Origin: a virus | Virus record (IMG/VR): IMGVR_UViG_3300045988_114220 | Reading direction: 5' to 3' (one strand) | Length of the DNA stretch: 59,525 nt | Shown here: positions 204 to 59,490 of the stretch, piece by piece | Layout: every line of letters starts with the position of its first letter | How positions within the stretch are numbered: position 1 is the stretch's first letter | The notes under the pieces: model-generated | The model's database searches: none | Told to the model about the DNA's origin: nothing | What the model saw: the letters and a program-made list of their open reading frames with translations, nothing else | Translations under genes and position numbers: made by a program

Positions 204-1340
204 ATGGAACAGCAGGCAGAGAGTCCGCCGATTAACTATCTGACGGACGCATACGAGCGGATTTATGATTACGAGGAATTGTATAATTCATACCTCGAAG
301 CAAGGAAGAACAAACGATACCGGGACGACGTGCTGAAATACACGGACAACCTCGAAAGCAACCTCATTGAATTGCAAAACGAACTGATATGGCAGACCTA
401 CAAGGTCGGAAAATACCGTCCGTTTTTCGTATATGAGCCGAAAAAGAGGCTCGTTATGGCGTTGAATTTCAAGGACCGTGTTGCTCAATGGAGTGTTTAC
501 AGACAACTCAACCCGTATTATGACCGTCTTTTTATCGGGGATAGTTACGCTTGCAGGAAAGGAAAAGGCTCTCACGCGGCGGCGGACCGTTTGCAGTATT
601 GGTTACGGCAGACGGGAAGAAAGCCGGGAAAATGGTACTACTTAAAGTTGGATATAAGCAAATATTTCTACCGGGTAGACCATTCCGTACTACTCAATAT
701 TCTTTCAAGGAGAATAAAGGACGAGAGGCTAATGGGACTGCTCCGCACGATAATCAATTCAGAGGAGCAGGCTTTCGGACTGCCGGCCGGCGTAGCGCCG
801 GACGATTGCCCGGAGGACGAATGGCTGTATGATGTGGGAATGCCTATCGGCAATCTGACATCACAATTATTCGCAAACATCTACCTCAACGAACTCGACC
901 AACATTGCAAGCACGACCTACACCTCCACTATTATATCCGATATATGGATGATATTATTATCCTCCACAACAGCAAAAGTGAACTACAAGCAATCAAGGA
1001 CGATATAGAGGTGTTTTTGGCGGAAAAACTGCACCTCAGTCTGAACAACAAGACGGCAATACGCCCGACGAGCCTCGGTATCGACTTTGTGGGGTATCGC
1101 ATATATGCGACACACCGCAAACTGAAAAAGCAGACCGCCCGGAGGATTATCCGAAGCGTTACGGCAATGAGCAAATCACTTGCGGCAGACACACTCTCAC
1201 GGGAGGATTTCGACCGCACAGCAGCCTCGTACAAGGGTATATTTCAGCATTGCAACAGTTTCGGATTGCGGCGGAAACTCAACGCAATTTTCAAGGAATA
1301 CGCCTTGTGCGGGAAAGGAGGAACAGCAAATGCAGTTTGA
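204..1340 (+). CDS. DGR reverse transcriptase
   Basis: ORF-track 27..1340 trimmed to the ATG at 204, which has an AGGAGG RBS. The protein has the motif PIGNLTSQLFANIYLNELD (a DGR-type I/VGxxxSQ) and YMDD. Confidence 0.9.
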   Translation: MEQQAESPPINYLTDAYERIYDYEELYNSYLEARKNKRYRDDVLKYTDNLESNLIELQNELIWQTYKVGKYRPFFVYEPKKRLVMALNFKDRVAQWSVYRQLNPYYDRLFIGDSYACRKGKGSHAAADRLQYWLRQTGRKPGKWYYLKLDISKYFYRVDHSVLLNILSRRIKDERLMGLLRTIINSEEQAFGLPAGVAPDDCPEDEWLYDVGMPIGNLTSQLFANIYLNELDQHCKHDLHLHYYIRYMDDIIILHNSKSELQAIKDDIEVFLAEKLHLSLNNKTAIRPTSLGIDFVGYRIYATHRKLKKQTARRIIRSVTAMSKSLAADTLSREDFDRTAASYKGIFQHCNSFGLRRKLNAIFKEYALCGKGGTANAV

Positions 1341-10455: not shown

Positions 10456-10570
10456 TGTTTTTACCACCTTTATATTTAAAATATTATATCATAAATGCCC
10501 CGATTTGTGTAGCGGTTGCCCCCAAAATCGGCATTTCCGAAAAATTTTTTAAAAAAAATCCCGAAAAAAC

Positions 10571-13954: not shown

Positions 13955-14346
13955 TGACTACGATTATCACGCAGAACAGACAGCACATAGTCACCGCAGA
14001 GGTGATTGAGAGAATTTCAGTAGAAAAATCGAACGAGGGAAACGAAATTGTCGCACACACAATCAACGGCGTTGAAATTTCACTCGGTATTTACAAAAAG
14101 GCGGAAAACGCCGCAAAGGTTATGACATATCTTTCGTTCTGTATCACGGACGACGGAAAAACGATCGTTGTTCCCACAGAGGAAGTCGTTTCCAACGACA
14201 AGAAAATCGCCACCGATTTTATCGGAAAGGTTATGGAGGACATTATCAAAAAAGGACCGCCCGCAGGCGTTAAGGCCGAAAAGGTTACTATCGACCCCAA
14301 TCTGAAAGAATTTCTCGAAAAGCTGAAAGGCGGTGACAAAGAATGA
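13954..14346 (+). CDS. Hypothetical protein
   Basis: TAATG overlap with the upstream stop. RBS GAGGAGG. Confidence 0.5.
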   Translation: MTTIITQNRQHIVTAEVIERISVEKSNEGNEIVAHTINGVEISLGIYKKAENAAKVMTYLSFCITDDGKTIVVPTEEVVSNDKKIATDFIGKVMEDIIKKGPPAGVKAEKVTIDPNLKEFLEKLKGGDKE

Positions 14347-22440: not shown

Positions 22441-23780
22441 GAAAATACACCGTAAATGACTTCTTCTGCGGTGCAGGGGGGGTGGCGCTCGGATTTATTA
22501 AAGCCGGATTTGATGTGATTTGGGCGTGCGATTTTGACAAGCATTGCGTAAAGACCTACGCCCACAATGTAGGCGATTGGGTGCGAGAGGCTGATGTAAC
22601 AAAGATTACATACAAGGATATTCCGAAAGCGGACGGTTGGACTTTCGGTTTTCCGTGCCAAGACCTCTCCGTAGCCGGGAAGCAAGCCGGATTTCAATTC
22701 CGTTGCCTCGACTGCGGAACAGAATGGAAACACGAACACGAGGGGCTTTCCCCTATCTGCCCCAAATGCGGAGCAACGAACTATACGGCAATCACCCGAA
22801 GCGCTTGCTTTTTTGAGATTATGCGCCTACTCGACGAAACAGAGCGAAACGCCCCGGAGAATTACCCCTCGTTTCTACTCGCCGAAAATGTAAAGGGGCT
22901 GAAACCGTATATCCCCGTTTTGACAGAGCAGCTCGAACAGAGAGGTTTTGACGTGCATATTCAACTTTACAATTCAAAGTATTGGAATGTGCCGCAGAAC
23001 AGAGAGCGCTATTTTATCGTTGCCACGCCGAAAGGAAAAGGAAATTTCAAATTCCCGGAGGAACAACACGAATATGTGCCGAAACTCTCCTCCGCCCTCG
23101 ATAAAGAGGTGGACGAGAAATACTATATCCCCGACGAAAAGGCGCAGACGATTATCCTACAAGCGTTGCAGAAAATCGAAAATCTCGGCAATGCTCACCC
23201 GTGCATTACGCCGGACCGTCTGAGCAAGAGGCAGAACGGGCCAAGAGCAAAAGGCGACGAGGCGGAAATGTTCACGCTCACCGCGCAGGACATTCACGGA
23301 ATTATAATTCAAGAGCGCAAGGGCGTGAGCCGGGACGCAATGAAATACATTTCGGACAAGCTGCTCGAATTTGTCGAAAAGAAAGGATATATCCCAAAGT
23401 TTTTCAATCCGTATAACTGCTCGGATTGCGGAGAACTCGCACCGACGGCAACAACCGCTTGCGGCGGACTCACAACCTCGGCGACGGTACTCGTGTTCAC
23501 GGACAAGAACAGCGGAGAGCCTGTCATTATTCAGTTACCGAGAGGCAAAAACGGAGGCAACATTCACGACGTCGCTCCGACCTTAACCGCCAACGCGTAT
23601 GAGCAGAACAACTATGTTTGTGAAAATATCGAGGCGGTCGAGAGCAAAATCTGCAACGAGAGCGGATTGCTTGACCCGGAGGGGCAAGGAAAAACGCTCC
23701 GCGTTGGCGGGGGGGGGTCGCTGACAAAGAAGCACAATTATCAGCACATTTTAGTGAAACAGTCCGAGGCGGAGTCTTGA
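22437..23780 (+). CDS. DNA cytosine-5 methyltransferase, N-terminal portion (motifs I-VIII plus several TRD-like TL repeats); reading frame terminates after a G9 tract
   Basis: Motif I FFCGAGGVALGF, motif IV GFPCQDLSVAGK, ENV (motif VI) and QNRERYF (motif VIII). TRD-like segments MFTLTAQDIHG and VAPTLTANAY. A Cys4 ribbon is inserted after motif IV. Confidence 0.85.
   Translation: MRKYTVNDFFCGAGGVALGFIKAGFDVIWACDFDKHCVKTYAHNVGDWVREADVTKITYKDIPKADGWTFGFPCQDLSVAGKQAGFQFRCLDCGTEWKHEHEGLSPICPKCGATNYTAITRSACFFEIMRLLDETERNAPENYPSFLLAENVKGLKPYIPVLTEQLEQRGFDVHIQLYNSKYWNVPQNRERYFIVATPKGKGNFKFPEEQHEYVPKLSSALDKEVDEKYYIPDEKAQTIILQALQKIENLGNAHPCITPDRLSKRQNGPRAKGDEAEMFTLTAQDIHGIIIQERKGVSRDAMKYISDKLLEFVEKKGYIPKFFNPYNCSDCGELAPTATTACGGLTTSATVLVFTDKNSGEPVIIQLPRGKNGGNIHDVAPTLTANAYEQNNYVCENIEAVESKICNESGLLDPEGQGKTLRVGGGGSLTKKHNYQHILVKQSEAES
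23709..23717 (+). repeat. G9 homopolymer inside the MTase gene (frameshift hotspot)
   Basis: ggcgggggggggtcg. The +1 frame downstream (23718..23896) is open and encodes ...GIFVGVSPTLIATDYKGPHLVIED. Confidence 0.9.
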
Positions 23781-23888
23781 AAAAGCAACGTAACGGAAAA
23801 GGCATATTTGTAGGCGTTTCCCCAACGCTTATAGCAACGGACTACAAAGGTCCACATCTCGTAATTGAAGACAAGGAGGACGGCAAAA

Positions 23889-24548
23889 ATGAGTAAAGAA
23901 TATCTCGAATGCGTCGTAAATGACAGAGGCTTTGTAAGCAAGCCCGCGCAGATAACACCAATCGCACCAACGCTCCGAGCGCAGGATCACGGAAATCAGC
24001 CGAAAGTCGTTGAGGTGAAAAGCGAAGCAACGCCCGGAATTGAAGTAATCGGAATGCTTGAAAACAGCGGAACAACACAGCAGCACAATAACCGGGTACA
24101 CAGCGTAGACGGAATATCGCCGACGCTCACGGCCGTTTCGGGCGGCACACATCACATTAAAATCTTTGATATTTCTCGGTTTAGAGTCCGCAAACTCACG
24201 CCGACGGAATACGGTCGCTTGCAGGCTTTCCCTGTTGACGACGGTTGGGAACAGGTCGTTTCCGACAGCCAAGCCTACCACCAATTCGGCAACGCCGTTA
24301 CGGTGTCGGTAGTCGAGGCAATCGGACAGGCAATCGGGAGTTATCTTGACAGCATTTTCGGAGTTGAGGCGGAGGCAGTCGAAGTCACCGACTTGTCCGA
24401 CGCACCGCAGGAAATCAAAGAACAGATTATATCCAATGCCGAGGCGCTCGAAGCAAAGGAAGAAAAGGCACATACAAGCGGGCTTGAATTCTTCTCAAAT
24501 GAGGAACTGCTCGCAGAACTCAACCGCCGAATGACGGTACACGCATAA
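23889..24548 (+). CDS. DNA cytosine-5 methyltransferase, C-terminal portion (TRD-like segments plus motifs IX-X)
   Basis: RBS AAGGAGG then ATG at 23889. Contains IAPTLRAQDHG and ISPTLTAVSGG. Motif X is RKLTPTEYGRLQAFPVDDGWE...QFGNAVTVSVVEAI. Confidence 0.75.
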   Translation: MSKEYLECVVNDRGFVSKPAQITPIAPTLRAQDHGNQPKVVEVKSEATPGIEVIGMLENSGTTQQHNNRVHSVDGISPTLTAVSGGTHHIKIFDISRFRVRKLTPTEYGRLQAFPVDDGWEQVVSDSQAYHQFGNAVTVSVVEAIGQAIGSYLDSIFGVEAEAVEVTDLSDAPQEIKEQIISNAEALEAKEEKAHTSGLEFFSNEELLAELNRRMTVHA

Positions 24549-24561
24549 GGAGGACAAAGAA

Positions 24562-25623
24562 ATGAAACTATTTAGCACAGAACAGGTATCAAAGTATCAC
24601 CCTGACAAATACGCAGACCAAATCAGCGACGCTATCCTCACCGCTTGTTTGAGAGATGACAAAAACAGCCGTGTAGCCTGCGAGTGTATGGTAAAGGGAC
24701 GGACTGTTATTCTCGCCGGAGAAATCACCACTACGGCAAAGGTAGACTATGCGGAAATCGCAAAGAGAGTCGGAAAGAAACTCGGATATGAGGTTGACAC
24801 CGTAATTCAGCAGATTTGCACACAGTCACCCGAAATCGCCGGAGGCGTAAAGAGCGGCGACGAACTTTGTGCCGGGGACCAAGGCATTATGTTTGGATAT
24901 GCCTGTGACGACACAGAAAGCGGCCTGCCCTACGCTTTTGATATGGCGAATAGAATTATCCGTCTATTGGAAAAAGACACGACAGCGCCGAATTCAGCAC
25001 TCAAAGGGGACGCGAAATGCCAAGTAACCGTAGACACCGAGAAACCCAAAGACGACCGCAGCCTCGTAGAAATCCTCGTCAGCGTATGCCACAAAGAACA
25101 GTATAAGCTAAAAGACATCAGAGAGTATGTGCGAAACCTTATCAAATACAGCGGAATTGACATTGGAGAAGCAACACTCAATATCAACCCGGCAGGCGTA
25201 TGGACTTTCGGAGGACCGGCGGCAGATTGCGGACTCACGGGCAGAAAAATCGTATGCGACCAATACGGCGGATTTTGCGCTGTTGGCGGCGGAGCGTTCA
25301 GCGGAAAAGACCCGTCAAAGGTTGACCGCTCGGCGGCATATATGGCGAATTATATCGCCCGCGACCTCGTAAAAAATCACGGACTGAAATCCTGCGAGGT
25401 ACAGATTGCCTACGCCATCGGAGAAAGCGCGCCTATGAGCGTTTCGGTAAAATCCTCGTCCCCGGTCGAAGACGCATATTTCGCAAAACTTGTAGAGGAA
25501 AAATACGACCTCACACCGGCCGGCATTATCAAATACCTCGACCTCCTCAATGTGGACTACGAGAAACTCGCCGAGGGCTGTCATTACAGAATGGAGCTGC
25601 CGAAAAGAGGAACAAACAAATGA
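24562..25623 (+). CDS. metK: S-adenosylmethionine synthetase
   Basis: HPDKYADQISDAIL, GDQGIMFGYA and GGGAFSGKDPSKVDRSAAY are hallmark MetK motifs. RBS AAGGAGG. Confidence 0.9.
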   Translation: MKLFSTEQVSKYHPDKYADQISDAILTACLRDDKNSRVACECMVKGRTVILAGEITTTAKVDYAEIAKRVGKKLGYEVDTVIQQICTQSPEIAGGVKSGDELCAGDQGIMFGYACDDTESGLPYAFDMANRIIRLLEKDTTAPNSALKGDAKCQVTVDTEKPKDDRSLVEILVSVCHKEQYKLKDIREYVRNLIKYSGIDIGEATLNINPAGVWTFGGPAADCGLTGRKIVCDQYGGFCAVGGGAFSGKDPSKVDRSAAYMANYIARDLVKNHGLKSCEVQIAYAIGESAPMSVSVKSSSPVEDAYFAKLVEEKYDLTPAGIIKYLDLLNVDYEKLAEGCHYRMELPKRGTNK

Positions 25624-26582
25624 GGGAAAACAAATACACGGTTGCCGATTTAACGGCTATGCAAGCGTGGCCCCTTTCTCGGAAAATTCAAGTAACACAA
25701 ACGCGCATTATTGAGTGGTACATAAAAAACGAGGGGCGGGTCTATGTGTCATTCAGCGGAGGCAAGGACAGCACGGTTTTGCTCGACCTTGTAAGACGAA
25801 TATATCCAGAAGTCCCTGGCGTGTTTTTAGATACTGGGCTTGAATATCCCGAAATTCGAGATTTTGTCAAAACAAAGGAGAATATTGTTTGGTTAAAGCC
25901 CGAAATGAATTTCCGAAAAGTCATAGAAACATACGGCTACCCACTTGCAAGCAAAGAAATTTCTAAACAAATAAGCGCAGCCCGGCGAGGTGCGAAAAAT
26001 GCAATCCTCGCTTTTGACGGCAAAGATGTCGCAGGAAACGAAACCGAGCACAGGAAGCGATATAAAAAATGGAAATTTCTATACGAAAGCAATATTCCAA
26101 TTTCGGAAAAATGCTGTGAAGTTATGAAAAAGAAGCCTGCAAAGAAATATGAGAAAGAAACCGGGAGAAAGCCAATTATTGCGACTATGGCGGAAGAAAG
26201 CACTTTAAGAGCGCAGGCGTGGTTGAAGAACGGTTGCAACGCATTCGACGGAAAACGCCCCACATCACAACCTATGTCGTTTTGGACCGAGCAAGATGTT
26301 CTAACATACCTCAAAGAATACCATATACCGTATGCGCCTGTATATGGAGAAATCGAGGAAATAAACGGAGCATTAAAGACTACGCTATGCGATAGAACAG
26401 GGTGCGTATTTTGCGGTTTTGGTTGCCATTTAGAAAAAGAGCCGAACAGATTTCAACGGTTAAAAATAACTCACCCGAAGTTGTGGGAGTATTGTATGAA
26501 GCCGTGGGAAGCCGGAGGGCTTGGAATGAAAACACCGCTTGAATTCATAGGGGTAAAGACAGAAACGGAGGAAGAATTATGA
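25620..26582 (+). CDS. PAPS-reductase-like ATP pyrophosphatase (PP-loop) with C-terminal Cys cluster (IbrA/DndC-like)
   Basis: PP-loop VSFSGGKDSTV. C-terminal CDRTGCVFCGFGC. Confidence 0.8.
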   Translation: MRENKYTVADLTAMQAWPLSRKIQVTQTRIIEWYIKNEGRVYVSFSGGKDSTVLLDLVRRIYPEVPGVFLDTGLEYPEIRDFVKTKENIVWLKPEMNFRKVIETYGYPLASKEISKQISAARRGAKNAILAFDGKDVAGNETEHRKRYKKWKFLYESNIPISEKCCEVMKKKPAKKYEKETGRKPIIATMAEESTLRAQAWLKNGCNAFDGKRPTSQPMSFWTEQDVLTYLKEYHIPYAPVYGEIEEINGALKTTLCDRTGCVFCGFGCHLEKEPNRFQRLKITHPKLWEYCMKPWEAGGLGMKTPLEFIGVKTETEEEL

Positions 26583-27283
26583 AGCCGATATACGAGCCGA
26601 AAGGCAAAGCAAAAGAATACGGCGACTATGCGCTGAATATCTACACAGGCTGTCCGCACCGCTGTTTTTACTGTTTCGCCCCGAATGTTTTGCATAAGGA
26701 CCGTGAGATATTTTACTCAAACATAGAGCCGAGGACAGATATAGTCAAGGCGACAAAGCGGCAGCTTGAAAACGAAATGATAACCGGGAAACTCATTCAT
26801 CTCTGTTTCACTTGCGACCCGTACCCGACAGGCTACGACACTACACCTACACGAGAAATAATCAGAGCCATTAAGGAACACGGGAACAATGTTCAAATAC
26901 TCACCAAAGGCGACGGGAGCAGGGATTTTGATTTGCTCGGCCCGGAGGATTGGTACGGCATAACCCTCGACGGAGCGACAACTCGAACAGGACATTTTGA
27001 TAACGCACCCCTTTTCAGATACACCAATCTCATAAAGGCACACGAAAAAGGCATAAGGACTTGGGTATCATTCGAGCCTGTGCTGAACGCCGAAAATGTA
27101 CTCGGAATGATAAAGGACATAGCACCACACACAGATAAGGTAAAAATCGGGAAACTGAACTACCACAAGTCAGATATAAATTGGGCGGAATTCGGGAGAA
27201 AAGCCGAGGAACTCTGTCAAAAACTTGGACTTGACTGTTATATCAAAGAAAGCCTACGAGCAGAAATGGAGGCAAAGAAATGA
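26579..27283 (+). CDS. SPL-type (DNA photolyase-like) radical SAM protein, copy A
   Basis: TGCPHRCFYCFA is a CxxxCxxC motif in the SplB-like GCxHxCxYCFA context. Confidence 0.6.
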   Translation: MKPIYEPKGKAKEYGDYALNIYTGCPHRCFYCFAPNVLHKDREIFYSNIEPRTDIVKATKRQLENEMITGKLIHLCFTCDPYPTGYDTTPTREIIRAIKEHGNNVQILTKGDGSRDFDLLGPEDWYGITLDGATTRTGHFDNAPLFRYTNLIKAHEKGIRTWVSFEPVLNAENVLGMIKDIAPHTDKVKIGKLNYHKSDINWAEFGRKAEELCQKLGLDCYIKESLRAEMEAKK

Positions 27284-27702
27284 AAACCCCGGAAGAAATA
27301 AAGCATTTACCAAATCTCCTTATAGCACAGACGAGCGAAGACGGAGGGTGTGGCGTACTGTTTAGGCTCGGAAAGAGGTTTGCCTCTGTTATTTGGAGTG
27401 ACGGAGGCGGTTGGGAACACGTCAGTATATGCCCGTTCAAACGCTCCTATATGCCCTCTTGGGACGATATGTGCCAACTCAAAGATATGTTCTTCAAAGA
27501 GAACGAAACCGTCGTGCAGTATCACCCGGCAAAGAGCGAGTATGTAAACAATATGGCAAACTGCCTACATTTGTGGCGACCGACGAATGGCGTACTTCCA
27601 ACACCGCCCTCTATTATGGTGGGAACGAAAAAGGGCCAAAGCAGAGCAGAAATCGAAGCAGCAATTAAGGAGGTTTGCGAAAATGAGCAGATACACAGAT
27701 AG
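27280..27702 (+). CDS. Hypothetical protein
   Basis: ATGA overlap. Contains the conserved-looking stretch WEHVSICP...SWDDM. Confidence 0.5.
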   Translation: MKTPEEIKHLPNLLIAQTSEDGGCGVLFRLGKRFASVIWSDGGGWEHVSICPFKRSYMPSWDDMCQLKDMFFKENETVVQYHPAKSEYVNNMANCLHLWRPTNGVLPTPPSIMVGTKKGQSRAEIEAAIKEVCENEQIHR

Positions 27703-28126
27703 CATTCAGAAACTTGTTGACCTTGCGAAAGAACACCCGGACCTGCCTATCGTTGCAATGGTAGACGGAGAAATAGTCGGTGGTGACGACTATGGGCGTT
27801 GGTTGGGGAGCGTCGGAAACGTGGAACTCGGCGAATATGTACTGTTTGACGACCGTTTTATCGACGACCGCGAGGAATTCAAAGAAAGGTATTATGACTA
27901 CAACGACGACGAACTCTGCGAGAAATTCGGATATGAGCCGGGTATCAATGAATACACCCTCAAAAACGGGCATTGTACGAGGAAGCGGTACGAGGAAAAC
28001 AAGGAAAACGAAAAACGCCTCGAAGCATACCTCGACGAAGTGGCGGAGCGAGCGTTCAAAGCGGCGATTATCGTCAACATTGACCTCCCGGACGACGTCG
28101 AAACATTTGAGGAGGGCGTCAAGTAA
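27683..28126 (+). CDS. Hypothetical acidic protein
   Basis: RBS AAGGAGG and ATG at 27683. Confidence 0.45.
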   Translation: MSRYTDSIQKLVDLAKEHPDLPIVAMVDGEIVGGDDYGRWLGSVGNVELGEYVLFDDRFIDDREEFKERYYDYNDDELCEKFGYEPGINEYTLKNGHCTRKRYEENKENEKRLEAYLDEVAERAFKAAIIVNIDLPDDVETFEEGVK

Positions 28127-28500
28127 TGAGAGGTGCAAAACCGGAACTGCTGAAAGAACTCTCTAAATACTCGAAAGAGGACATAATCGAGGCTCTCGGA
28201 CGGCAATACCAAGCGGATTTTATCATCAGCGGCATTGTAGGCGACCTTGAATATATAGCCTCAAAAAGACTGCTCGACGAACACGGTAAGGCTATTAAAG
28301 CACGCGAGGACGCTTTTGGAGCGTATGTGGAGTGGCGCAATCAAATGTGCATAGCCTACGGCGACGGCAAAAGCGTTAAATTGACAAATATACCGCCGAA
28401 AGAAATAACAAAAGGCACAGCCCTTGTAAGAGCGTTAAAAAGTGCAACCGAAGCCGAGCAGAAACTCGACAAAAAAATCAGCAAAATGCTGAAAATTTAG
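28126..28500 (+). CDS. Hypothetical protein
   Basis: Coupled start. Confidence 0.45.
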   Translation: MRGAKPELLKELSKYSKEDIIEALGRQYQADFIISGIVGDLEYIASKRLLDEHGKAIKAREDAFGAYVEWRNQMCIAYGDGKSVKLTNIPPKEITKGTALVRALKSATEAEQKLDKKISKMLKI

Positions 28501-28513
28501 GAGGACAATAAAT

Positions 28514-28837
28514 ATGAAAAACATATCAGAACTCTCCGACCTTATGTTGGAAATTCTCGAAAGCTGCCCGGATTTTAAGTTAAATCCGCGAGGGATTGAG
28601 ATAATCAATGAGATTGCGGATTACGCCGAGCAGACAGACATATTCAAAGCAAACAAGGAACGCGGCGAAATCTTTGACGGGCAGACTGCAAAAAACATAT
28701 TTTGTTATATGCTCGACCGCGTTGTAAATGCACCAACGGTATTACATAGAAATTCGAGCGTAATTCTTATTATGCCGTTTGTAAGAAAAAGACTGAACGA
28801 AGAAATGGCAGGAGGAAACGATAATGTCAAAAATTAA
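28514..28837 (+). CDS. Hypothetical protein
   Basis: RBS AGGAGGACAATAAATATG. Confidence 0.45.
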   Translation: MKNISELSDLMLEILESCPDFKLNPRGIEIINEIADYAEQTDIFKANKERGEIFDGQTAKNIFCYMLDRVVNAPTVLHRNSSVILIMPFVRKRLNEEMAGGNDNVKN

Positions 28838-29948
28838 AATCACAGCAGAAAACAACATTCAGTTTGAAGCGGAGGGCGAAGACCGTTTCGTGCAGGAAGA
28901 ACGCAGAGCCTTTATGGAAATGCTCGCCGACAAAAACACGGTCAAGGCGGTTAAAGCGGTACAGGAAGCAATCACACCCCGCACGGTCCGCCCGGACGGG
29001 CTTGCAGAGGAAACAGTAGTCATTTACGACGACTACGGTATTCCCTCGATTATGAGGAAAATCAGCAAGGTAACAAACGCAGAGTTATTCGGCGGCGCAA
29101 ACAAAACGCACTCGGCGTTTATTATCGACGGCGAGGAATACGACGAGATTTATATTTCCGTATATCCGAACTGCGTTATCAACGGCCGCCCCTATTCTCT
29201 GCCTTATATGAAACCGTGGACGGACCTGACAAATGACGCGGCAGCAAAGGCGTGTTTCAGCAAGGGCGACGGTTGGCATTTAATGACGGCGGCAGAATGG
29301 GGACTCGTAGCGAATATCTGCAACCGGGACGGCACATATCCGCACGGCAACACGAAACACGGTAAATATCACGCAGACCCGTCCGAGGAGGGCGCTACAT
29401 TCGACGGAGGCACAGGCAAAACCCTCACGGGAAGCGGGCCGGCGACGTGGACGCACAATCACAAGCCGGACGGCATACACGACCTCTGCGGCAATGTGTG
29501 GGAAATGATTAGAGGCCTCCGCATTATTAACGGAAAAATCGAAGTCGCAAAGGACAATAACGCCGCACTTGACATTGACCTCACCGAAGCGGGCGACGAT
29601 TGGCAGCCTCTCACCGCTCCGAACGGTAAGCCGATAAATTTCTCCGTAGGCGACGATTTCAAATTCACAACGGACGAGCCGGAGGACGGCTACAACGGGA
29701 CCGAATGGGAAAATGTTTACTCGGATTTCGGATTTTCGGACGAACTCAAAGAACTTGCACTCTACCCCGGAGAAGACAACGCCTATCTGTATGTAGATAG
29801 CACCGAGGGCGAATATCTGCCGTATCGTGGTGGCAGCTGGAACAACGGGGCGAATGCGGGCGTGTTCTACACGAATTTGGATGGCGGGCGCACGGCTGCG
29901 GGCGGCGGCGTCGGTTTCCGCTCCGCTTATTTCAAAAAGAAAGACTGA
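28824..29948 (+). CDS. Remote DGR target protein with an FGE/C-type-lectin-fold C-terminus carrying VR1
   Basis: C-terminal YRGGSWNNGANAGVFYTNLDGGRTAAGGGVGFRSAYF. The GDGWHLMTAAEWG core is paralogous to the tail-fibre target 57822..58892. Confidence 0.85.
   Translation: MSKIKITAENNIQFEAEGEDRFVQEERRAFMEMLADKNTVKAVKAVQEAITPRTVRPDGLAEETVVIYDDYGIPSIMRKISKVTNAELFGGANKTHSAFIIDGEEYDEIYISVYPNCVINGRPYSLPYMKPWTDLTNDAAAKACFSKGDGWHLMTAAEWGLVANICNRDGTYPHGNTKHGKYHADPSEEGATFDGGTGKTLTGSGPATWTHNHKPDGIHDLCGNVWEMIRGLRIINGKIEVAKDNNAALDIDLTEAGDDWQPLTAPNGKPINFSVGDDFKFTTDEPEDGYNGTEWENVYSDFGFSDELKELALYPGEDNAYLYVDSTEGEYLPYRGGSWNNGANAGVFYTNLDGGRTAAGGGVGFRSAYFKKKD
29819..29928 (+). repeat. DGR variable repeat VR1
   Basis: Aligns to TR 59382..59490 with 14 mismatches, all at TR adenines. 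The 3' block cggtttccgctccgct is identical. Confidence 0.85.
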
Positions 29949-29970
29949 CAACTGATTACTGAAAAACTGT

Positions 29971-29993
29971 CGGGGCGGTCGAAAGACCGCTCC
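29971..29993 (+). other. GC-rich hairpin (GAAA loop) 43 nt downstream of VR1
   Basis: ggggcggtc-gaaa-gaccgctcc. Confidence 0.5.
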
Positions 29994-30011
29994 ACAGAGA
30001 AAGGAAACGAT

Positions 30012-30431
30012 ATGCCCGAAAGAATTTATACAGCGCCGTACACTTGCGTATCGTGCGGCGGACCGAAGACGAGGACGGAGGACGACCTCTGCCCCGCTTG
30101 TATCGAAAAGGCAAAGCGGAGCGCGGAAATCAAAATGGACGAGGCAACCCTACGCAGAGCAATCGCCGCATACGGTAAAAACGCACAGGTGGATATGGCG
30201 ATAGAGGAAATGAGCGAACTGACAAAGGCACTATGCAAGGAGCGGAGGTATGAACTCGTAAAAGGGACACACGCCGAGGCTCACGCAAATGTTATCGAGG
30301 AAATTGCAGATGTGCTGATTATGTGCAGGCAACTGCTCATTATTTTCGACCGGGACGAAGAAATCCAAGCCGAAATCAATTACAAAATTCAGCGCCTCAA
30401 ACAGAGGCTCGACAAACGAGAGGAGCAATAA
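30012..30431 (+). CDS. MazG-like nucleotide pyrophosphohydrolase with N-terminal zinc ribbon
   Basis: Contains EEMSELTKAL...EEIADVLIM and CVSCGG...CPAC. Confidence 0.45.
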   Translation: MPERIYTAPYTCVSCGGPKTRTEDDLCPACIEKAKRSAEIKMDEATLRRAIAAYGKNAQVDMAIEEMSELTKALCKERRYELVKGTHAEAHANVIEEIADVLIMCRQLLIIFDRDEEIQAEINYKIQRLKQRLDKREEQ

Positions 30432-30434
30432 TCT

Positions 30435-30830
30435 ATGAATATGGTTGTTTTGGTAGGAAGAACTACCACCGACATTGAGTTAAAGACCACACCGAACGGC
30501 GTTTCGGTTGCGTCGTTCGTATTAGTGGTTGACCGCAGAACAAAAGAGGACGCGGCGGACTTTCCGACCGTGGTGGCGTGGAGGCAGACGGCGGAATTTG
30601 CCTCGAAGTATATCCAAAAGGGGCGCAAAATCGTCGTACAGGGCGAAATCCGTACCCGCAACTATGAAGACCGGGACGGAAAGAAACGAAAGGTCACGGA
30701 GATACACGCGACGAATATTGAGTTTGCGGATAGCAAGCCGACCACAGGCAACGGAAACAGCACAACGACCGCACCGGGACCGGCAGAGGGCTTTGACGAA
30801 ATCCCCGGCGACGAAGATTTACCGTTTTGA
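30435..30830 (+). CDS. ssb: Single-stranded DNA-binding protein
   Basis: OB-fold MNMVVLVGRTTTDIELKTTPNGVSVASF...VVAWR and an acidic C-terminal tail DEDLPF. Confidence 0.85.
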   Translation: MNMVVLVGRTTTDIELKTTPNGVSVASFVLVVDRRTKEDAADFPTVVAWRQTAEFASKYIQKGRKIVVQGEIRTRNYEDRDGKKRKVTEIHATNIEFADSKPTTGNGNSTTTAPGPAEGFDEIPGDEDLPF

Positions 30831-31045
30831 TTAGAAAAGTAAAACTCACGCCGGAGGACAAAAGGATATTCGCAACAGAGGTAAAGAAACTCTCCGCCCC
30901 GGAATTTGTGCAGCTGACAAAAGAACTTGAAATTTTCAAAGAACGATTTACCGCCGAGGATTGGAAATATATCTGCTCGCACACAGGACGGAGAGCGGAG
31001 CGGCTGTTGCGAAATGTAGCCGAGCATTACAGTTTTGACGATTAG
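30827..31045 (+). CDS. Hypothetical protein
   Basis: Coupled start. Confidence 0.4.
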   Translation: MIRKVKLTPEDKRIFATEVKKLSAPEFVQLTKELEIFKERFTAEDWKYICSHTGRRAERLLRNVAEHYSFDD

Positions 31046-32100: not shown

Positions 32101-32755
32101 ATCCGAACTCGAATTGCAGAACATAATTCAGACGGCCGTAACAGCAGCTTTTGAGGTTGCAAATCAGAATATCGAGGAGAAATTGCAGAAAGCGGTTGAA
32201 CTCGGAACAAAAATAGGCGCAGCCGTCGGAGCGGAAGTCGGAGCGAAAGCGGCGGTAAAGGCCGTGGAGCGCGAGAAAAAGAGAGTCAGAGAAAGACTGT
32301 ACGACAGACGCTATCACAACACCAAACTCCTCTTGCAGAATTACAGACACCTCAATGAGCATTTCAAGAACGCTATTTTTGAAATAGAGCAGGCAGAAGA
32401 ATTCGACGAAACATTCTACGACATTATGGAATGTATGAACAGCCGAGGATATGACGACGAGATTTATGTGGAGGGCATTAAGCAAAGCACTATCCGCACG
32501 AAAATCATAATGACGCACGTAAACCGTATGCTCGACATCTATGGGATTATGTGTGAAAGGTCAAGCCGAGAGGACGATAAGCGTCACTACCGTATTTTGA
32601 GGGCAATGTATATCGACGAAACACCAACCACAGCGCAGGCAATAGCAGACCGGGAGAAAATCGACAAAAGAACGGTATACAGGGACATTGACGCGGCTAC
32701 GGCCTGCCTCACCTCGTTACTTTACGGCGCAGACGGACTTGACAAAATGAAATGA
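32087..32755 (+). CDS. Putative late-gene transcriptional activator (ArpU/sigma-region-4-like C-terminal HTH)
   Basis: The C-terminus is TPTTAQAIADREKIDKRTVYRDIDAATACLTSLL. It precedes a strong promoter and the packaging genes. Confidence 0.45.
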   Translation: MGKSKSELELQNIIQTAVTAAFEVANQNIEEKLQKAVELGTKIGAAVGAEVGAKAAVKAVEREKKRVRERLYDRRYHNTKLLLQNYRHLNEHFKNAIFEIEQAEEFDETFYDIMECMNSRGYDDEIYVEGIKQSTIRTKIIMTHVNRMLDIYGIMCERSSREDDKRHYRILRAMYIDETPTTAQAIADREKIDKRTVYRDIDAATACLTSLLYGADGLDKMK

Positions 32756-33511: not shown

Positions 33512-34081
33512 ATGATTATCGCAAAGAAACGCATAGACGAAATGGACCGGGCGAAGTATAACCCGCGAATTGAACTGCGACCGGGCGACGACGAATACGA
33601 GAAGCTGCACGGCAATATTCTCCGTTTCGGAATGGTGTTACCTATCGTATGGAACGAGAGGACGAACACGGTCGTCGGAGGACATCAGCGCCTCACCGTT
33701 TTGGAAAACGACGGCGTGGAGGAGGTTGAGGTATCGGTAGTAAACCTCGACGAGAAGCAGGAAAAGCAGCTTAATATCGCCCTCAATAAGACGGGCGGTA
33801 ATTGGGACGAGGCAAAACTCACGGCGTTGCTCGACGAACTCGGCGACGACGCACTCGAAACGGGATTTAGCGAAATGGAAATTGAGGCGTTACAGAACGA
33901 CATTGACGACCTCGTAGACGGAGGATTTCTGAACGACGAATTATCGACGCTCGAAAAACTCTTTAACCTGTCACTCACATTCAATTCGGCGGACCGTGCG
34001 GACATTAACGCATATATCAAGGACTACGGAAAAGAGGACCTTGTGAAAGTGATTATCCAAAAAGTGAGAGGAGAGATATAA
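33512..34081 (+). CDS. ParB/Srx-like nuclease-domain protein, paralog 2
   Basis: Contains YNPRIELRPGDDEYEKL, VGGHQRL and LNIALNKTGGNWD. It is in tandem with paralog 1. Confidence 0.75.
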   Translation: MIIAKKRIDEMDRAKYNPRIELRPGDDEYEKLHGNILRFGMVLPIVWNERTNTVVGGHQRLTVLENDGVEEVEVSVVNLDEKQEKQLNIALNKTGGNWDEAKLTALLDELGDDALETGFSEMEIEALQNDIDDLVDGGFLNDELSTLEKLFNLSLTFNSADRADINAYIKDYGKEDLVKVIIQKVRGEI

Positions 34082-35100
34082 TGGGGTGCATTTGCGGAAG
34101 CCAAGCAATCCTATGCAACCTACCTATTCGCTTTGACACCTACAAGGGGTGTAGTCACGGTTGCCGATATTGCTTTGCACAGAAAAAGCAGGACATAGCC
34201 AAAATCGGAAAAGGTGAAACGGCGGAAAGCCTGCGGAATTTTATCGAGGGAAAGCGCACCGACACGACGAATTGGTGCGATTGGAAAATCCCCATTCATT
34301 GGGGCGGAATGAGCGACCCGTTTCAGCCTATCGAACGGAAATACAGAGTATCGTATGAGTGCTTGAAGCTGCTCGCCGAAACGAAGTACCCATTTGTCGT
34401 AAGCACAAAGGGCCGACTTGTGGCAACGCCGGACTACATAGAACTGCTGTCGAAATGCAACTGCGTCGTACAGATTTCTATGGTGTGCAGTAAATACGAC
34501 AAACTCGAAAGAGGTTGCCCGCCTTATGAGGAGCGCCTCGAAATGGTGCGGAAACTCGCCCCGAAAGTACAGAGAGTCGTTGTCAGAATTCAGCCGTATA
34601 TGTTGGAAGTATTCGACGACGTGATGAAAAACATTCCCCGCCTCGCAGAAGCAGGCGTATACGGAGTTGTCGTAGAGGGAATGAAATTTTTTAAGGCAAA
34701 AGAGGGTATGGTGAAAATCGGAGGCGATTATTGCTATCCTCTGCCGCGTATCCGCAGAGATTTTGAGGCTATCCGAGCGGAGTGCCACCGAAACGGCATT
34801 AAATTCTACGCGGGAGAAAATAGGCTGCGCGCAATGGGCGACAATATGTGCTGTTGCGGCATAGACGGCCTGCCCGATTTCAAGGGAAACGACTACAACC
34901 TATGTATGCTATTGAATGGTAAAAACCCACAGCCGACGGAACTTATGAAAACAGTCGGGACCGGCGGTTGCTTCAAGGCTCTTAATCAGAGCGCAGGAAG
35001 CAGCAGAAAACTCACGAAGCAGTCTTTTTACGGGCTTATGCAAGAAGAACTCGCAACAAAACTTGATTACCATAGAAAGGTGTTCGGACTTGACGAATAG
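34081..35100 (+). CDS. SPL-type radical SAM protein, copy B
   Basis: Contains YKGCSHGCRYCFA. Confidence 0.7.
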   Translation: MGCICGSQAILCNLPIRFDTYKGCSHGCRYCFAQKKQDIAKIGKGETAESLRNFIEGKRTDTTNWCDWKIPIHWGGMSDPFQPIERKYRVSYECLKLLAETKYPFVVSTKGRLVATPDYIELLSKCNCVVQISMVCSKYDKLERGCPPYEERLEMVRKLAPKVQRVVVRIQPYMLEVFDDVMKNIPRLAEAGVYGVVVEGMKFFKAKEGMVKIGGDYCYPLPRIRRDFEAIRAECHRNGIKFYAGENRLRAMGDNMCCCGIDGLPDFKGNDYNLCMLLNGKNPQPTELMKTVGTGGCFKALNQSAGSSRKLTKQSFYGLMQEELATKLDYHRKVFGLDE

Positions 35101-35935
35101 CCTCACCCCGGTACAAGAAATAAACGGACTGCTGATGAAGCGTGAGGACCTTTACGCTCCTTTCGGGAGAGGAGAGGTAAACGGAGGAAAACTGAGGCAA
35201 TGTATGATGTTGACGGATAGCGTCCTCGCTGCCGACAATGGCGTACAATGCCTCTTTACTTATTGTAGCATACATTCACCACAAGCGCCGATAACGGCCG
35301 CCTCTGCCCGTTCTCACGGCTTGCCCTGCTACATTGTATACGGAGGAGGAAAAGCAGAGAATGTTAAAACATTGCCTATGCCGCGATTGGCAATGAAATA
35401 CGGCGCTCAAATAATTATCGGAGCGAGGAGCGGGCGGCATAATGTTCTTTATGCGGCTACGAAGCCTCTTTCCGAGAAAAAACGCGGATTTATAGTACAA
35501 TACGGCATTAACCTCGTAGGCTATGGTGATGTACTTCTCGACGCTGTATCAGCACAGGTTGAAAATATCCCGAATGAGATAGAAAATCTTGTTATGACTT
35601 GCGGAAGCGGAATAACCGCCTCCGGCGTAATGATAGGACTACACAAATACGGGAAAAAGGTCAAGAATGTTCACCTCGTAGCAACCGCCCCAGACAGACG
35701 AGCGTTTATACACGCAAATTTAAGGCAATACGGAGCGGACAGAGAATTTCATTATCACAGTCTATTCCATACGCCCGGATTTGTATATGAAAAAGGCGCA
35801 AAGGCGGTATGGGGGGGTCTAACGCTTCACCCACATTACGAGGCGAAGACAATGCAATGGTTTATGCAAAGCGGACTCAACCCCTCCGACACCCTCTTTT
35901 GGATAGTCGGCGCAGAGCCGTCGAATAGAGCGTAA
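35088..35935 (+). CDS. PLP-dependent fold-type-II enzyme (ACC deaminase/D-cysteine desulfhydrase-like)
   Basis: Contains LMKREDLYAPFGRGEVNGGKLRQ. The start is uncertain: TTG at 35088 after AAAGGTG, with alternatives at 35063 and ATG 35135. Confidence 0.5.
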
Positions 35936-57821: not shown

Positions 57822-58892
57822 ATGAGTAATTTTGACCTTACGGGGCTTGCCGTTAGTTCGGTATTCCCGACAAACAAAGTAATCACCGACGACAAGGGAC
57901 TCCCCTCTGTTATGGTGTATATTCCGAAATTCAAGATGTCCGACGTTATCACGGGCGGAAGCGACAGCGTACACCCGGCGTTTATCGTAGACGGCGTTGA
58001 GAAGAACGGTATCTACATCTCGAAGTATCAGAACAAGGTATACGACGGTCGTGCGTACTCTCTCCCCGGAGAAGACCCGGCCACAGGTATCAACTTTGAT
58101 AATTCTATCGCCCGCTGCACCGCAAAGGGTGCGGGGTGGCACTTAATGACTGCTATGGAATGGGGCGCTATCGCCTTGTGGTGCAAGAAAAACGGTTGGT
58201 TGCCCTACGGCAATAACAACTACGGCAAGGACACACGCGAGAGCCTCTATAAAGCAGTACCGACGCTCTACGGCTCTGACGGCAAAATTAACCGCGTAGC
58301 AACAGGTACAGGCCCGGTCGAATGGAGTCATAATAAGCAGCTCGACGGTATATACGACCTCAACGGCAATGTATTTGAATGGGTCGGCGGTATGCGTCTT
58401 GTCAAGGGTGAATTACAAATCCTTGAAAACAACAACGCCGCAAACGGAAGCAACTCGCAGACGGCGGCCTCGGCGCAATGGAAAGCGATTGACGGAACAA
58501 CGGGCGAACTCATTACGCCGAACGGGACCGGCACAACCGAAAACTCCCTCAAACTTGATTATGTATCAAGCAAGTGGAAGTGGATTACGGGTACTATCTC
58601 CTCGGCGACTGACGAGGCGCGCGGCTGTACTTTTGCCAATGTGAGCGCAGACGATAATGTTTGCGCGGAGGCAAAAGGACTCCTTTACGCGATTGCAATG
58701 CTACCCGATAGCACCTCGTTCGATTACGAGGGCGACTACTTCTATGCCAACAACGGCAACGCAGAGCGGTCGCCGAGTCGTGGTGGCAGCTGGGGCTACG
58801 GGACGTATGCGGGCGTGGTCTACTCGGATTTGGGTCACGGGCGCGCGAGTACGAGCATCGACATCGGTTTCCGCTCCGCTTTTTATGATTAA
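57822..58892 (+). CDS. DGR target: tail-fibre/receptor-binding protein with FGE/C-type-lectin fold and C-terminal VR2
   Basis: C-terminal RGGSWGYGTYAGVVYSDLGHGRASTSIDIGFRSAFYD. It is the last tail gene before avd. Confidence 0.85.
   Translation: MSNFDLTGLAVSSVFPTNKVITDDKGLPSVMVYIPKFKMSDVITGGSDSVHPAFIVDGVEKNGIYISKYQNKVYDGRAYSLPGEDPATGINFDNSIARCTAKGAGWHLMTAMEWGAIALWCKKNGWLPYGNNNYGKDTRESLYKAVPTLYGSDGKINRVATGTGPVEWSHNKQLDGIYDLNGNVFEWVGGMRLVKGELQILENNNAANGSNSQTAASAQWKAIDGTTGELITPNGTGTTENSLKLDYVSSKWKWITGTISSATDEARGCTFANVSADDNVCAEAKGLLYAIAMLPDSTSFDYEGDYFYANNGNAERSPSRGGSWGYGTYAGVVYSDLGHGRASTSIDIGFRSAFYD
58765..58880 (+). repeat. DGR variable repeat VR2
   Basis: Aligns to TR 59375..59490 with about 15 adenine-site and 2 non-adenine mismatches. 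Confidence 0.85.
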
Positions 58893-58919
58893 CTGATAAC
58901 TGCATACTGAACGACTGAC

Positions 58920-58941
58920 GGGAGGGGCGGTAGCCCCTCTC
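58920..58941 (+). other. GC-rich hairpin 39 nt downstream of VR2
   Basis: gggaggggc-ggta-gcccctctc. Confidence 0.5.
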
Positions 58942-58964: not shown

Positions 58965-59351
58965 ATGGATATTGAGAAAATCAATTATGGCAAAGACACA
59001 ACCTCTTTTATTCTCAAAGAAAAGATTGCCGATATGATAGCATACGGCAAGCCCGCCGTAGACAACTTTCCGAGGAGAGAACGGCAGACCGCCGACGAGA
59101 TACGAGCAACTATGCTGAATATGCTCCGACTGTCTATCAAGATTGAGAAAAAGTATTATTCCAAAACCGACTTACGGGACCTTGATATAGAACTCGACAC
59201 CCTGCGTCATTTTATCCGCTTTGCGCAGGATAAGAGATACTATAACCCAAATGTCGCACCGCCTCTTGCTTTCAAAAAGTACGAGGTGTGGAGCAAAATG
59301 CTGAACGAAATCGGCAGGATAATCGGAGGCTATATGAAGTACCTCAAATAG
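58965..59351 (+). CDS. avd: DGR accessory variability determinant
   Basis: 128 aa basic helical protein between the target gene and TR. Confidence 0.8.
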   Translation: MDIEKINYGKDTTSFILKEKIADMIAYGKPAVDNFPRRERQTADEIRATMLNMLRLSIKIEKKYYSKTDLRDLDIELDTLRHFIRFAQDKRYYNPNVAPPLAFKKYEVWSKMLNEIGRIIGGYMKYLK

Positions 59352-59374: not shown

Positions 59375-59490
59375 AGCGGTCGCCGTATCGTGGTGGCAAC
59401 TGGAACAACGGGACGAATGCGGGCGTGTTCTACACGAATTTGAATAACGGGCGCACGAATACGAGCAACAACATCGGTTTCCGCTCCGCT
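59375..59490 (+). repeat. DGR template repeat (TR); its 3' end is duplicated at 1..20
   Basis: Adenine-rich invariant copy of both VRs. It lies between avd and the RT. Confidence 0.85.

Follow-up and report, generated by a model that had tools for sequence, protein, structure and literature searches.

Diversity-generating retroelements (DGRs) that serve a target away from their own cassette have been described in several settings. In a 2018 survey by Wu et al. (PMC5758913), remote targets were found in 45 of 372 DGRs, which agrees with an earlier sequence-only reading of the present locus that had called such targets less common, and many phage-associated DGRs paired an adjacent target with a non-adjacent one no more than 50 kb away. 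For Faecalibacterium phage FP_Lagaffe, two variable repeats (VRs) were reported in 2024 (PMC11792537). Its gene order runs from the tail module through a near target, Avd, template repeat (TR), RT and lysis genes to a paralogue of the near target, set among early genes; the near target gp26 and the distal target gp40 are ~40% identical to each other, and the mismatches in both VRs fall only at adenines (13/13 and 11/11). Four gut prophages reported in 2025 (PMC12629997) carry a distal second VR in the same prophage, near DNA methyltransferase or counter-defence genes; that paper was written without orthology or TR co-variation analysis. In the tentaclin DGRs of gut phages (PMC10743442), two C-type-lectin (CLec) targets are diversified from one TR, and the role of the second is unclear. 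One TR also serves several VRs in trans in the systems with non-adjacent targets from Treponema, Legionella, cyanobacteria and prophages. Surveys confined to the vicinity of the RT miss such distal targets (PMC8144416).

We analysed a 59,525-nt stretch of viral DNA, called the window throughout. It is a circular assembly in which bases 1-55 repeat bases 59471-59525, leaving a unit of 59,470 bp, and the phage has a serine integrase. The phage is not a deposited isolate; a nucleotide search of the phage collection returned no close relative, only short matches of 70-78% to Dulem viruses. The features of the cassette and of its two targets are as follows.

204..1340, + strand: DGR reverse transcriptase (RT); RVT_1 4e-24, IGNLTSQ and YMDD motifs
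28824..29948, + strand: distal ("remote-type") target gene, 374 aa, TaqVP-like CLec fold; phrog_2889 3e-102, matches to 5VF4
29819..29927, + strand: distal VR, codons 333-368 of ORF 28824-29948; 14 mismatches vs TR
57822..58892, + strand: near-type target gene, last in the baseplate/tail module, 356 aa; phrog_2889 3e-125
58765..58880, + strand: near VR; 17 mismatches vs TR, 15 at adenines and 2 at thymines
58965..59351, + strand: Avd (accessory variability determinant); Pfam bAvd 5e-23, NCBIfam DivGenRetAVD 91.1 bits (cut-off 80)
59375..59490, + strand: TR, of which 59382-59490 is common to the distal VR; overlaps the terminal duplication of the circular assembly

The RT translation contains the IGxxxSQ and YxDD signatures of the DGR clade and its gene adjoins the TR; together with an Avd that scores above the NCBIfam cut-off, these motifs identify the cassette as a genuine DGR. 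The RT reading frame is already open at base 27, with the first ATG at 204, and alignments to the RTs of relatives begin only at about residue 41-72 of the ORF counted from base 27. Baseplate genes lie upstream of the near-type target gene. The window contains exactly two VRs, the near VR and the distal VR. The distal VR lies 29,563 bp from the TR in one direction and 29,907 bp in the other, so that its placement almost antipodal to the cassette, noted from the sequence alone, holds on the circular unit.

The window has the Lagaffe-type layout, in which one TR supplies both a target beside the cassette and a paralogue of it far away in the early region. The near target is the orthologue of gp26 and the distal target that of gp40, and the two window proteins are full-length paralogues with 37% identity. 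The window differs from Lagaffe in several respects: in Lagaffe ~9 kb separate the TR from the distal VR, against 29.6 kb in the window, gp40 is only 37% identical to the window distal protein, the gp40 VR is internal with the ORF running ~118 aa past it, there is no clear hairpin in the 90 nt after the gp40 VR, and the Lagaffe genome is 48 kb with an IS30-type integrase. The species that carry DGRs in the 2025 study are mostly Bacteroidota phages, whereas the relatives of the window reside in Clostridia genomes. Both tentaclin targets are inside the cassette, unrelated in sequence and equipped with Ig-like domains, whereas the window targets are paralogues, one of them distal. The bacterial remote targets are chromosomal lipoproteins or signalling proteins, often >100 kb away, whereas the window target travels with the phage genome. 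Since Lagaffe, the four gut prophages and the non-adjacent phage targets of 2018 precede it, the distal-target arrangement is not new; it is already known in related phages, and the window adds another member.

An ungapped alignment of TR 59382-59490 with window positions 29819-29927 (109 nt) contains 14 mismatches, every one of them at a TR adenine (13 A>G, 1 A>C). Half of the 28 adenines are thus altered, and the 81 non-adenine positions agree without exception; a hypergeometric test gives P=2.5e-10 for 14 mismatches falling on adenines alone. These counts reproduce what had been read from the sequence, as does the identity of the 3′ block, the last 17 nt (TCGGTTTCCGCTCCGCT) being the same in the TR and both VRs. 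The start of the repeat was also placed correctly, but its end had been put at 29928, one base too far, as homology stops at 29927 and T29928 faces C59491 of the TR. The distal VR is the closer match to the TR outside the adenines (0 non-adenine mismatches, against 2 for the near VR) and is more skewed towards A>G (13/14, against 10/15 in the near VR), a skew that could reflect selection or chance. The TR codons that contain adenine are ten AAY, four ACG, one AGC, one ATC and two TAY, with 28/28 adenines at codon positions 1-2. Since no TR adenine occupies a third codon position, mutagenesis cannot create stop codons; the 18 rewritable codons of the distal VR allow ~4e16 protein variants, none of them truncated by a stop. 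The distal VR ends 21 nt before the stop codon of its ORF.

Both VRs have similar cis elements in or after them, which are as follows.

29911..29927, + strand: invariant GC-rich 3′ block of the distal VR, IMH-like (TCGGTTTCCGCTCCGCT); 17 nt identical in the TR and both VRs
29944..29969, + strand: AACTG repeats with a 7-nt period, between the distal VR and the hairpin; found by motif search in the window
29972..29993, + strand: GC-rich hairpin/cruciform with a 9-bp stem and a GAAA (GRNA-type) loop; DNA fold -13.7 kcal/mol, z=-5.0
58892..58940, + strand: near-VR flank, with AACTG repeats at 58892-58917 and a GGTA-loop hairpin at 58921-58940; found by fold and motif search

In the window the AACTG flank motif occurs at the two VR flanks only (0 expected by chance), and the repeats downstream of VRs are kept across the clade. 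At the distal VR they put a TGA in all three frames (29946, 29953 and 29960). The spacing from VR to hairpin is 40-44 nt at the two VRs. Guo et al. 2011 (PMC3240598) described a GC hairpin with a 4-nt GRNA loop, 4-34 nt from the VR, as a DGR recognition element; the distal hairpin fits this element, but its distance of 44 nt is slightly past the tabulated range. The distal VR is found at the 3′ end of its gene with an invariant GC-rich end and a GC hairpin. The same arrangement is seen in Bordetella phage BPP-1, which shares with the window the adenine-specific transfer from TR to VR, the Avd and RT cassette, a 3′-terminal VR in the gene of a CLec-fold protein, and the downstream GC hairpin with a GRNA loop. 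BPP-1 differs in having a single adjacent target and a hairpin 4 nt away, whereas in the window 40-44 nt and AACTG repeats intervene.

The paralogy of the two target genes would fit a distal repeat that the DGR has ceased to rewrite, either a duplication relic or a defunct target, and Dulem virus 37, where 7 of 23 mismatches in the distal VR are non-adenine, suggests decay in that one genome. In the window, the 100% DNA identity at 81 non-adenine VR positions, set against 37% identity in the rest of the proteins, and the better fit of the distal VR than of the near VR at non-adenine sites argue against such a relic. The VRs of relatives were sought with each genome's own TR; BLAST with the window TR was too insensitive on loci L004-L016. 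In a close relative, contig IMGVR_UViG_3300045988_101051, the TR has three non-adenine changes relative to the window TR, and its distal VR carries two of them, at positions retained unmutated; the third is a change of G to adenine, where the distal VR reads G. Against its own TR, this distal VR has 14/14 mismatches at adenines. The comparison was extended to 8 more genome pairs with divergent TRs, whose RTs are 61-77% identical. There, each distal VR differs from the TR of its own genome at 11-17 positions, of which 0-1 are non-adenine (P=5e-8 to 8e-14), and the TR and the distal VR are ~6-34 kb apart. At loci L002 and L003, the TR has GGC in place of GGT, and this change has been copied into the VR.

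Natural variation points the same way. Among 27 distal-target homologues with 93-96% identity, the mean column entropy is 0.049 bits over residues 1-331 and 1.22 bits over residues 332-364. Of the 20 most variable columns, 17 are at adenine-containing TR codons in the VR and 3 are outside it (21, 35 and 179), and the residue repertoire of the VR in these homologues is rich in Tyr, Ser, Gly, Asn and Asp. The outcome that had been named as evidence against diversification, a lack of variation confined to TR-adenine sites, was given by neither the nine-genome co-variation nor the 27 homologues. We reject an assembly artefact, as many independent contigs show this arrangement. Co-variation and hypervariability together effectively refute the relic, whose probability we regard as negligible. 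Since the distal VR follows its own TR in nine relatives and varies at adenine codons in 27 homologues, we conclude from sequence comparison, with a probability of roughly 0.93, that 29819-29927 is a true and currently active second target of the single DGR of this phage. Its rewriting presumably depends on the RT.

The distal target gene has a strong AGGAGG ribosome-binding site, and its product is most similar, in both sequence and fold, to TaqVP, the target of a Thermus aquaticus prophage DGR (PDB 5VF4; profile E=4e-49, Foldseek E=1.8e-20, TM 0.68). TaqVP chains were the only matches in a Foldseek search of the PDB at E<=0.001. The two proteins are of similar length, each with a single FGE-subtype CLec domain and a C-terminal VR, and the distal VR aligns to TaqVP VR residues 342-383. 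TaqVP is however only ~27% identical, is monomeric, is without the additional ~60-aa N-terminal segment of the window protein, and is the cassette-adjacent and only known target of its DGR. Of the FGE/C-type-lectin fold proposed from the sequence, the fold itself is borne out by the TaqVP profile and structure matches, while the Pfam FGE-sulfatase model (PF03781) stays below threshold in the distal protein (18.3 bits vs 23.3); some distal-target homologues carry a precomputed PF03781 match. An AlphaFold2 model built on a 65-sequence alignment is good in the core, but pLDDT is <50 for residues 327-363, across the VR, and so the putative placement of the variable residues on a binding face is taken from the TaqVP alignment.

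The Mtd protein of BPP-1 is an obligate trimer with β-prism and β-sandwich domains, whereas the window proteins are TaqVP-like and single-domain; consistent with this fold, the Mtd-type N-terminal trimerisation domains were not found in the distal protein. The search for an effector or known anti-defence domain likewise gave only the binding domain. Neither a signal peptide nor a transmembrane segment is present; Kyte-Doolittle hydropathy over 19 residues peaks at 0.49. Residues 1-66 showed no similarity to other window ORFs (blastp, E up to 50) or to Pfam, which led us to abandon the idea that the N-terminal extension is the counterpart of small ORFs located upstream of the near target.

The distal target lies outside the tail module. 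Upstream of it are C5 methylase, SAM synthetase, PAPS-reductase-like and radical-SAM genes, and downstream are MazG-like, SSB and resolvase genes, which bears out the earlier assignment of this stretch to a non-structural early/modification region. The start of the gene overlaps the upstream early ORF. A promoter and terminator scan of 26500-31000 gave only weak consensus matches near background (7 vs 3.9 expected; 11 vs 6.4) and hence no evidence for an independent transcription unit, and the distal target appears to belong to an operon with early genes. When target proteins were compared with the VR removed, every cassette-adjacent target scored higher to the near target of the window, and every distal target, including Lagaffe gp40 and Dulem virus 37 34247-35392, scored higher to the distal one. 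These comparisons indicate that near-type and distal-type targets are two orthologous groups and that the distal lineage is old and separate. Its members in every lineage examined are encoded amid early, DNA-modification or accessory genes: methylase, SAM synthetase, PAPS-reductase-like, radical-SAM and MazG-like genes are their neighbours in the window, Dulem virus 37 and Lagaffe, along with Lar/anti-restriction or early recombination genes. Within a given genome pair, sequence change is faster in the distal-type target than in the near-type one.

Our best guess for the distal protein is a hypervariable ligand binder, encoded separately, that would act in host interaction. We give about even odds that the virion carries it as a second receptor-binding or adhesin protein, whose gene lies apart from the tail module and which would dock via its ~60-aa N-terminal extension. 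Its full-length paralogy with the tail-module target, the Foldseek matches in a viral library that are mostly annotated as tail collar fibre proteins, the presence of a binding domain without an effector domain and a VR composition like that of binding sites are consistent with a virion protein, and the characterised phage DGR targets are virion proteins (PMC3240598; PMC12636319). Against this stand its absence from the structural module across examined lineages with different gene orders, its overlap with the upstream early ORF without a flanking terminator or convincing promoter, its faster evolution, an N-terminal extension unlike any virion protein in the window and the missing trimerising domains of Mtd. 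The term "mass spectrometry" does not occur in the Lagaffe paper, and we found no proteomic data on gp40 or on the window distal protein.

The same gene context raises the possibility, which we hold tentatively and consider less likely than a virion adhesin, of a non-virion, early-expressed binder acting inside the cell: a cytoplasmic "antibody-like" protein diversified against variable host defence proteins or rival phages, for example in counter-defence or superinfection exclusion, so that the distal lineage would be a counter-defence paralogue lineage of Clostridia phages. The conserved position beside methylase, SAM, MazG-like and anti-restriction genes in three phages, the apparent operon with early genes and the lack of a signal peptide or transmembrane segment are in keeping with it, as are the distal second VRs beside counter-defence genes in the 2025 study (PMC12629997) and the cytoplasmic CLec DGR sensors proposed in bacteria (PMC10907252). 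This support is guilt by association, however; the protein has no effector or known anti-defence domain, and genes of an early region can still be transcribed late. To our knowledge, an intracellular action has yet to be demonstrated for any phage DGR target.

For the rewriting itself, we propose that the RT (204-1340) and Avd (58965-59351) would copy TR RNA (59375-59490) into cDNA, misincorporating opposite adenines, and that the mutated cDNA would replace either of the two VRs. Each VR would be marked by the common cis set of a GC-rich 3′ block, a 40-44-nt spacer in which AACTG recurs every 7 nt and a GRNA-looped GC hairpin. The second VR lies ~29.6 kb off, half-way round the 59.5-kb genome. 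Its rewriting would alter 18 C-terminal codons of a soluble, single-domain, TaqVP-like C-type-lectin protein.

Taken together, these results suggest that, across a widespread clade of temperate gut Clostridia phages, a single retroelement is the source of diversity in two proteins, and that the distal target is maintained as well as the tail target. If the distal protein is a virion adhesin, a single TR would supply variation to two surfaces used in host recognition; an intracellular role would mean that phage DGRs serve counter-defence in addition to host recognition. The orthologue set defined here includes a protein of the cultured phage Lagaffe (gp40), which makes the question of its role directly testable.

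A repeat search of the window returned a single three-copy family (29812-29927, 58765-58880 and 59375-59490) in a circular assembly, in which positions 1-55 repeat 59471-59525 and leave a unit of 59,470 bp. The copy at 59375-59490 is non-coding and is flanked by the genes for the accessory variability determinant (bAvd) and the reverse transcriptase (RT), and therefore it is the template repeat (TR) of the diversity-generating retroelement (DGR). The other copies are the variable repeats (VRs) of a distal target and of a near, cassette-adjacent target.

RT open reading frame, open from base 27, first ATG at 204 (RVT_1, 4e-24; DGR-type IGNLTSQ motif and YMDD motif)
28824-29948, distal target (374 aa, with an AGGAGG ribosome-binding site); distal VR in codons 333-368
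57822-58892, near target, the last gene of the baseplate module
58965-59351, bAvd gene (Pfam 5e-23; NCBIfam DivGenRetAVD, 91.1 bits, cut-off 80)
59375-59490, TR, non-coding, between the bAvd gene and the RT

All 28 TR adenines (28/28) occupy codon positions 1 or 2 (10 AAY, 4 ACG, 1 AGC, 1 ATC and 2 TAY), so that adenine mutagenesis never yields a stop codon, and in theory 15^10 x 4^8 proteins, about 3.8e16, can be encoded. The stretch 3' of the TR (59491-59525 and 1-203; CTGCTG…GCCGG…CACCAAAGGGG) is kept across the RT clade, including loci L017-L026 of relatives, and presumably forms a structured spacer of the DGR RNA.

When TR 59382-59490 was aligned without gaps to 29819-29927, all 14 mismatches were at TR adenines (14/14; 14 of the 28 adenines changed; hypergeometric P = 2.5e-10), while the 81 non-adenine positions were identical (81/81). 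The sequence-only reading had reported a second, remote VR at 29819-29928 with these same counts, which hold; its end coordinate was one base too long. Thirteen substitutions were A>G and one was A>C, and this skew (13/14) gives an Ala/Gly-rich patch, AAGGGV, at 29895-29910. The distal VR of phage Lagaffe (NC_047911) is also skewed (9/11), while the remaining relatives show no such bias (6-9 A>G among 11-17 mismatches), and chance or selection may account for the skew. In the near VR, two mismatches to the TR were at non-adenines (T>A at 58776 and T>G at 58818, against TR 59386 and 59428), compared to none in the distal VR, and thus the distal copy is the closer match to the present TR in this genome.

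Searching viral contigs with the distal protein gave two close relatives (94% amino acid identity) and 13 full-length homologues (50-58%). One close relative, IMGVR_UViG_3300045988_101051, also carries the cassette, with an RT 99% identical to that of the window. Five positions distinguish its TR from the window TR, and three of these are non-adenines in the window TR (G91A, C98T and T104C); C98T and T104C are also present in its distal VR, and at position 91, where its TR now has an adenine, its distal VR reads G, one of its 14 adenine-site mismatches. None of these 14 is at a non-adenine (7 A>G, 4 A>T and 3 A>C), and the set differs from that of the window. The substitutions in a third genome differ again, and 13/13 are at adenines. 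Crossing a profile-based scan with an RT scan gave nine contigs on which the RT is separated from a distal-type target by about 6-34 kb, and in all nine (9/9) the distal VR matches its own diverged TR, with 11-17 mismatches and 0-1 at non-adenines (P = 5e-8 to 8e-14). In one distal-type homologue (locus L015, about 11090-11143), a one-base length change within the VR garbles the C-terminus (…NARWLPRFPLRLF, then stop); either homing introduced this indel or the assembly is in error.

A large protein search yielded 26 clusters at 93-96% identity, each of 374 aa, in which mean column entropy was 0.049 bits over residues 1-331 versus 1.22 bits over residues 332-364. Twenty columns were flagged for the highest variability. 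Seventeen lie in the VR (334, 338, 340, 341, 343, 344, 349, 351, 353, 354 and 357-363), and 17/17 of these correspond to TR codons that contain adenine; columns 21, 35 and 179 fall outside the VR and show ordinary variation only. Because population variation sits at TR-adenine positions, the distal target is active in nature. A lack of variation confined to such positions was what the sequence-only reading had said would count against it, and the opposite is clearly seen. The observation of that reading is confirmed and its interpretation supported: the DGR has a second, active target at the distal site.

The distal VR closes with 17 nt, TCGGTTTCCGCTCCGCT, that the TR and the near VR share without change. 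The motif ACTGAYAACTGNNTACTGAANNACTG occurs twice in the window (0 expected by chance), each time flanking a VR, and both VR downstream flanks share this motif and a strong GC hairpin, whereas the TR has neither.

29972-29993, distal hairpin, 9-bp stem and GAAA loop (-13.7 kcal/mol, z=-5.0)
58921-58940, near hairpin, GGTA loop (z=-3.7)

Homing is directed by the IMH and a 7-10-bp GC hairpin with a 4-nt GRNA loop 4-34 bp past the VR, and these suffice to retarget a heterologous gene (Guo et al. 2011, PMC3240598). Both window sites fit this element, although their spacer is slightly longer (40-44 nt versus 4-34). Between each VR and its hairpin are 3-4 AACTG units with a 7-nt period (29944-29969 and 58892-58917, and the VR flanks of relatives L002-L042). 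Clade-wide, these repeats flank near and distal targets alike: of 160 distinct IMH-like core sites, 86 carry the repeats, most of the others being TRs. The window distal repeats place TGA in all three frames (29946, 29953 and 29960), and the AACTG repeats might act in recognition or as a stop block for the three frames. No description of this element was found in the DGR literature examined.

The window phage is temperate, with an integrase and a repressor gene; the other genes in this list lie upstream or downstream of the distal target.

8177-9769, minus strand, serine integrase
9853-10467, minus strand, repressor
22317-23780 and 23865-24548, C5 DNA methylase split over two ORFs, upstream of the distal target
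24562-25623, SAM synthetase, upstream
25620-26582, PAPS-reductase-domain protein, upstream
26579-27283, radical-SAM-like protein, upstream
DUF7694 protein and small ORFs, upstream
MazG-like pyrophosphohydrolase, SSB, Holliday-junction resolvase, two ParB-like proteins and then terminase, downstream

The start codon of the distal target overlaps the preceding ORF, and neither a promoter nor a terminator was convincingly identified on the flanks of the gene. In other lineages, too, the distal type lies outside the structural module. In Lagaffe the distal target follows lysis and regulator genes and precedes exonuclease, Gam, ERF and SSB; in Dulem virus 37 (PP511443) the surrounding genes encode a type I methyltransferase subunit, HTH proteins and Lar; and in an NCBI MAG relative it has the same arrangement. 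The immediate neighbours of the distal type are not conserved. Relatives are found in genomes of Blautia, Oscillospiraceae and other Clostridia. Elsewhere in the window, 22317-27283 and 34081-35935 form a dense DNA-modification or metabolism cluster, including two radical-SAM-like proteins and a PLP-dependent enzyme, that may serve in DNA hypermodification or against restriction; a 1280-aa ORF (14343-18185) joins an N-terminal SbcD-like region to an SbcC-like region; and a 539-aa ORF (2053-3672) with three LysM-like repeats (YTV.RGD.L..IA) at 3126-3570 is probably an endolysin.

Both targets match phrog_2889 (3e-102 distal, 3e-125 near) and, weakly and under the Pfam cut-off, FGE-sulfatase, and they share 37% identity over almost their full length. 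A 65-sequence profile matched TaqVP (5VF4) at E=4e-49, aligning the window VR with the TaqVP VR. TaqVP, from a Thermus aquaticus prophage DGR, is a monomeric, single-domain, FGE-subtype CLec protein, unlike Mtd, which has trimerising β-prism and β-sandwich domains (PMC6328139). An AlphaFold2 model of the distal protein (pLDDT 69, pTM 0.74) matched 5VF4 in Foldseek (E=1.8e-20, TM 0.68) and no other PDB entry at E<=0.001. Since the model is unreliable over the VR (pLDDT <50), homology is the basis for placing the variable residues on the binding face, where they would be expected to lie. The distal protein has an additional N-terminal segment of about 60 aa, with no relatives detectable among window ORFs or in Pfam, and no hydrophobic segment was found.

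We consider a virion-associated adhesin the leading reading of this protein (probability about 0.5), as it is paralogous to the tail target, all characterised phage DGR targets set this precedent, and its structural neighbours carry tail-fibre annotations. However, its gene consistently keeps company with early and counter-defence genes even where the gene order has been rearranged, and it stands in an operon arrangement with early genes, the distal type evolves faster, and the protein lacks Mtd-type attachment or trimerisation domains. These same features favour an early, intracellular binder outside the virion, which we regard as a possible but less probable role; some other role takes the probability that is left.

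Non-adjacent targets were reported in 45/372 DGRs, and many phage-associated DGRs have one adjacent and one non-adjacent target in the same prophage (Wu et al. 2018, PMC5758913). A 2024 study described two VRs in Lagaffe, in two Mtd-like targets 40% identical to each other, with cognate genomes varying at both VRs (PMC11792537); we verified adenine-only mismatches at both. In 2025, a distal VR next to counter-defence genes was reported for four gut prophages (PMC12629997). Large metagenome surveys explicitly miss targets of the distal kind (PMC8144416). Given these precedents, the window is a well-supported case of an arrangement already described, not a new type of system. What is added here is TR/VR co-variation across nine genomes, the definition of a conserved distal-type orthologue group including a cultured phage, and a conserved AACTG-repeat spacer. 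Lagaffe differs in that its distal VR (32602-32706) is internal, the ORF running to 33060, about 118 aa past the VR, through CTCTG repeats that encode an acidic tail rich in D, S and L; the 90 nt after this VR showed no clear hairpin. In the GenBank record of Dulem virus 37, the TR (24807-25022) is annotated as a CDS, 'enediyne biosynthetic pathway protein', and both targets (23202-24281 and 34247-35392) as 'CalU17 biosynthetic pathway protein'.

When target sequences were scored with the VR removed, all cassette-adjacent targets scored higher to the window near target (about 75 loci, Lagaffe gp26 and Dulem virus 37 23202-24281), whereas all distal targets scored higher to the window distal target (L001-L016 and Lagaffe gp40). 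Compared over the same pairs of genomes, the distal type has diverged faster, with identities to the window of 54% versus 71% for the near type in Dulem virus 37 and 37% versus 61% in Lagaffe. The Dulem virus 37 distal VR may be decaying, since 7/23 of its mismatches are at non-adenines. The clean separation of the near and distal groups shows that the duplication predates these phage lineages, and both paralogue copies have been retained as DGR targets.
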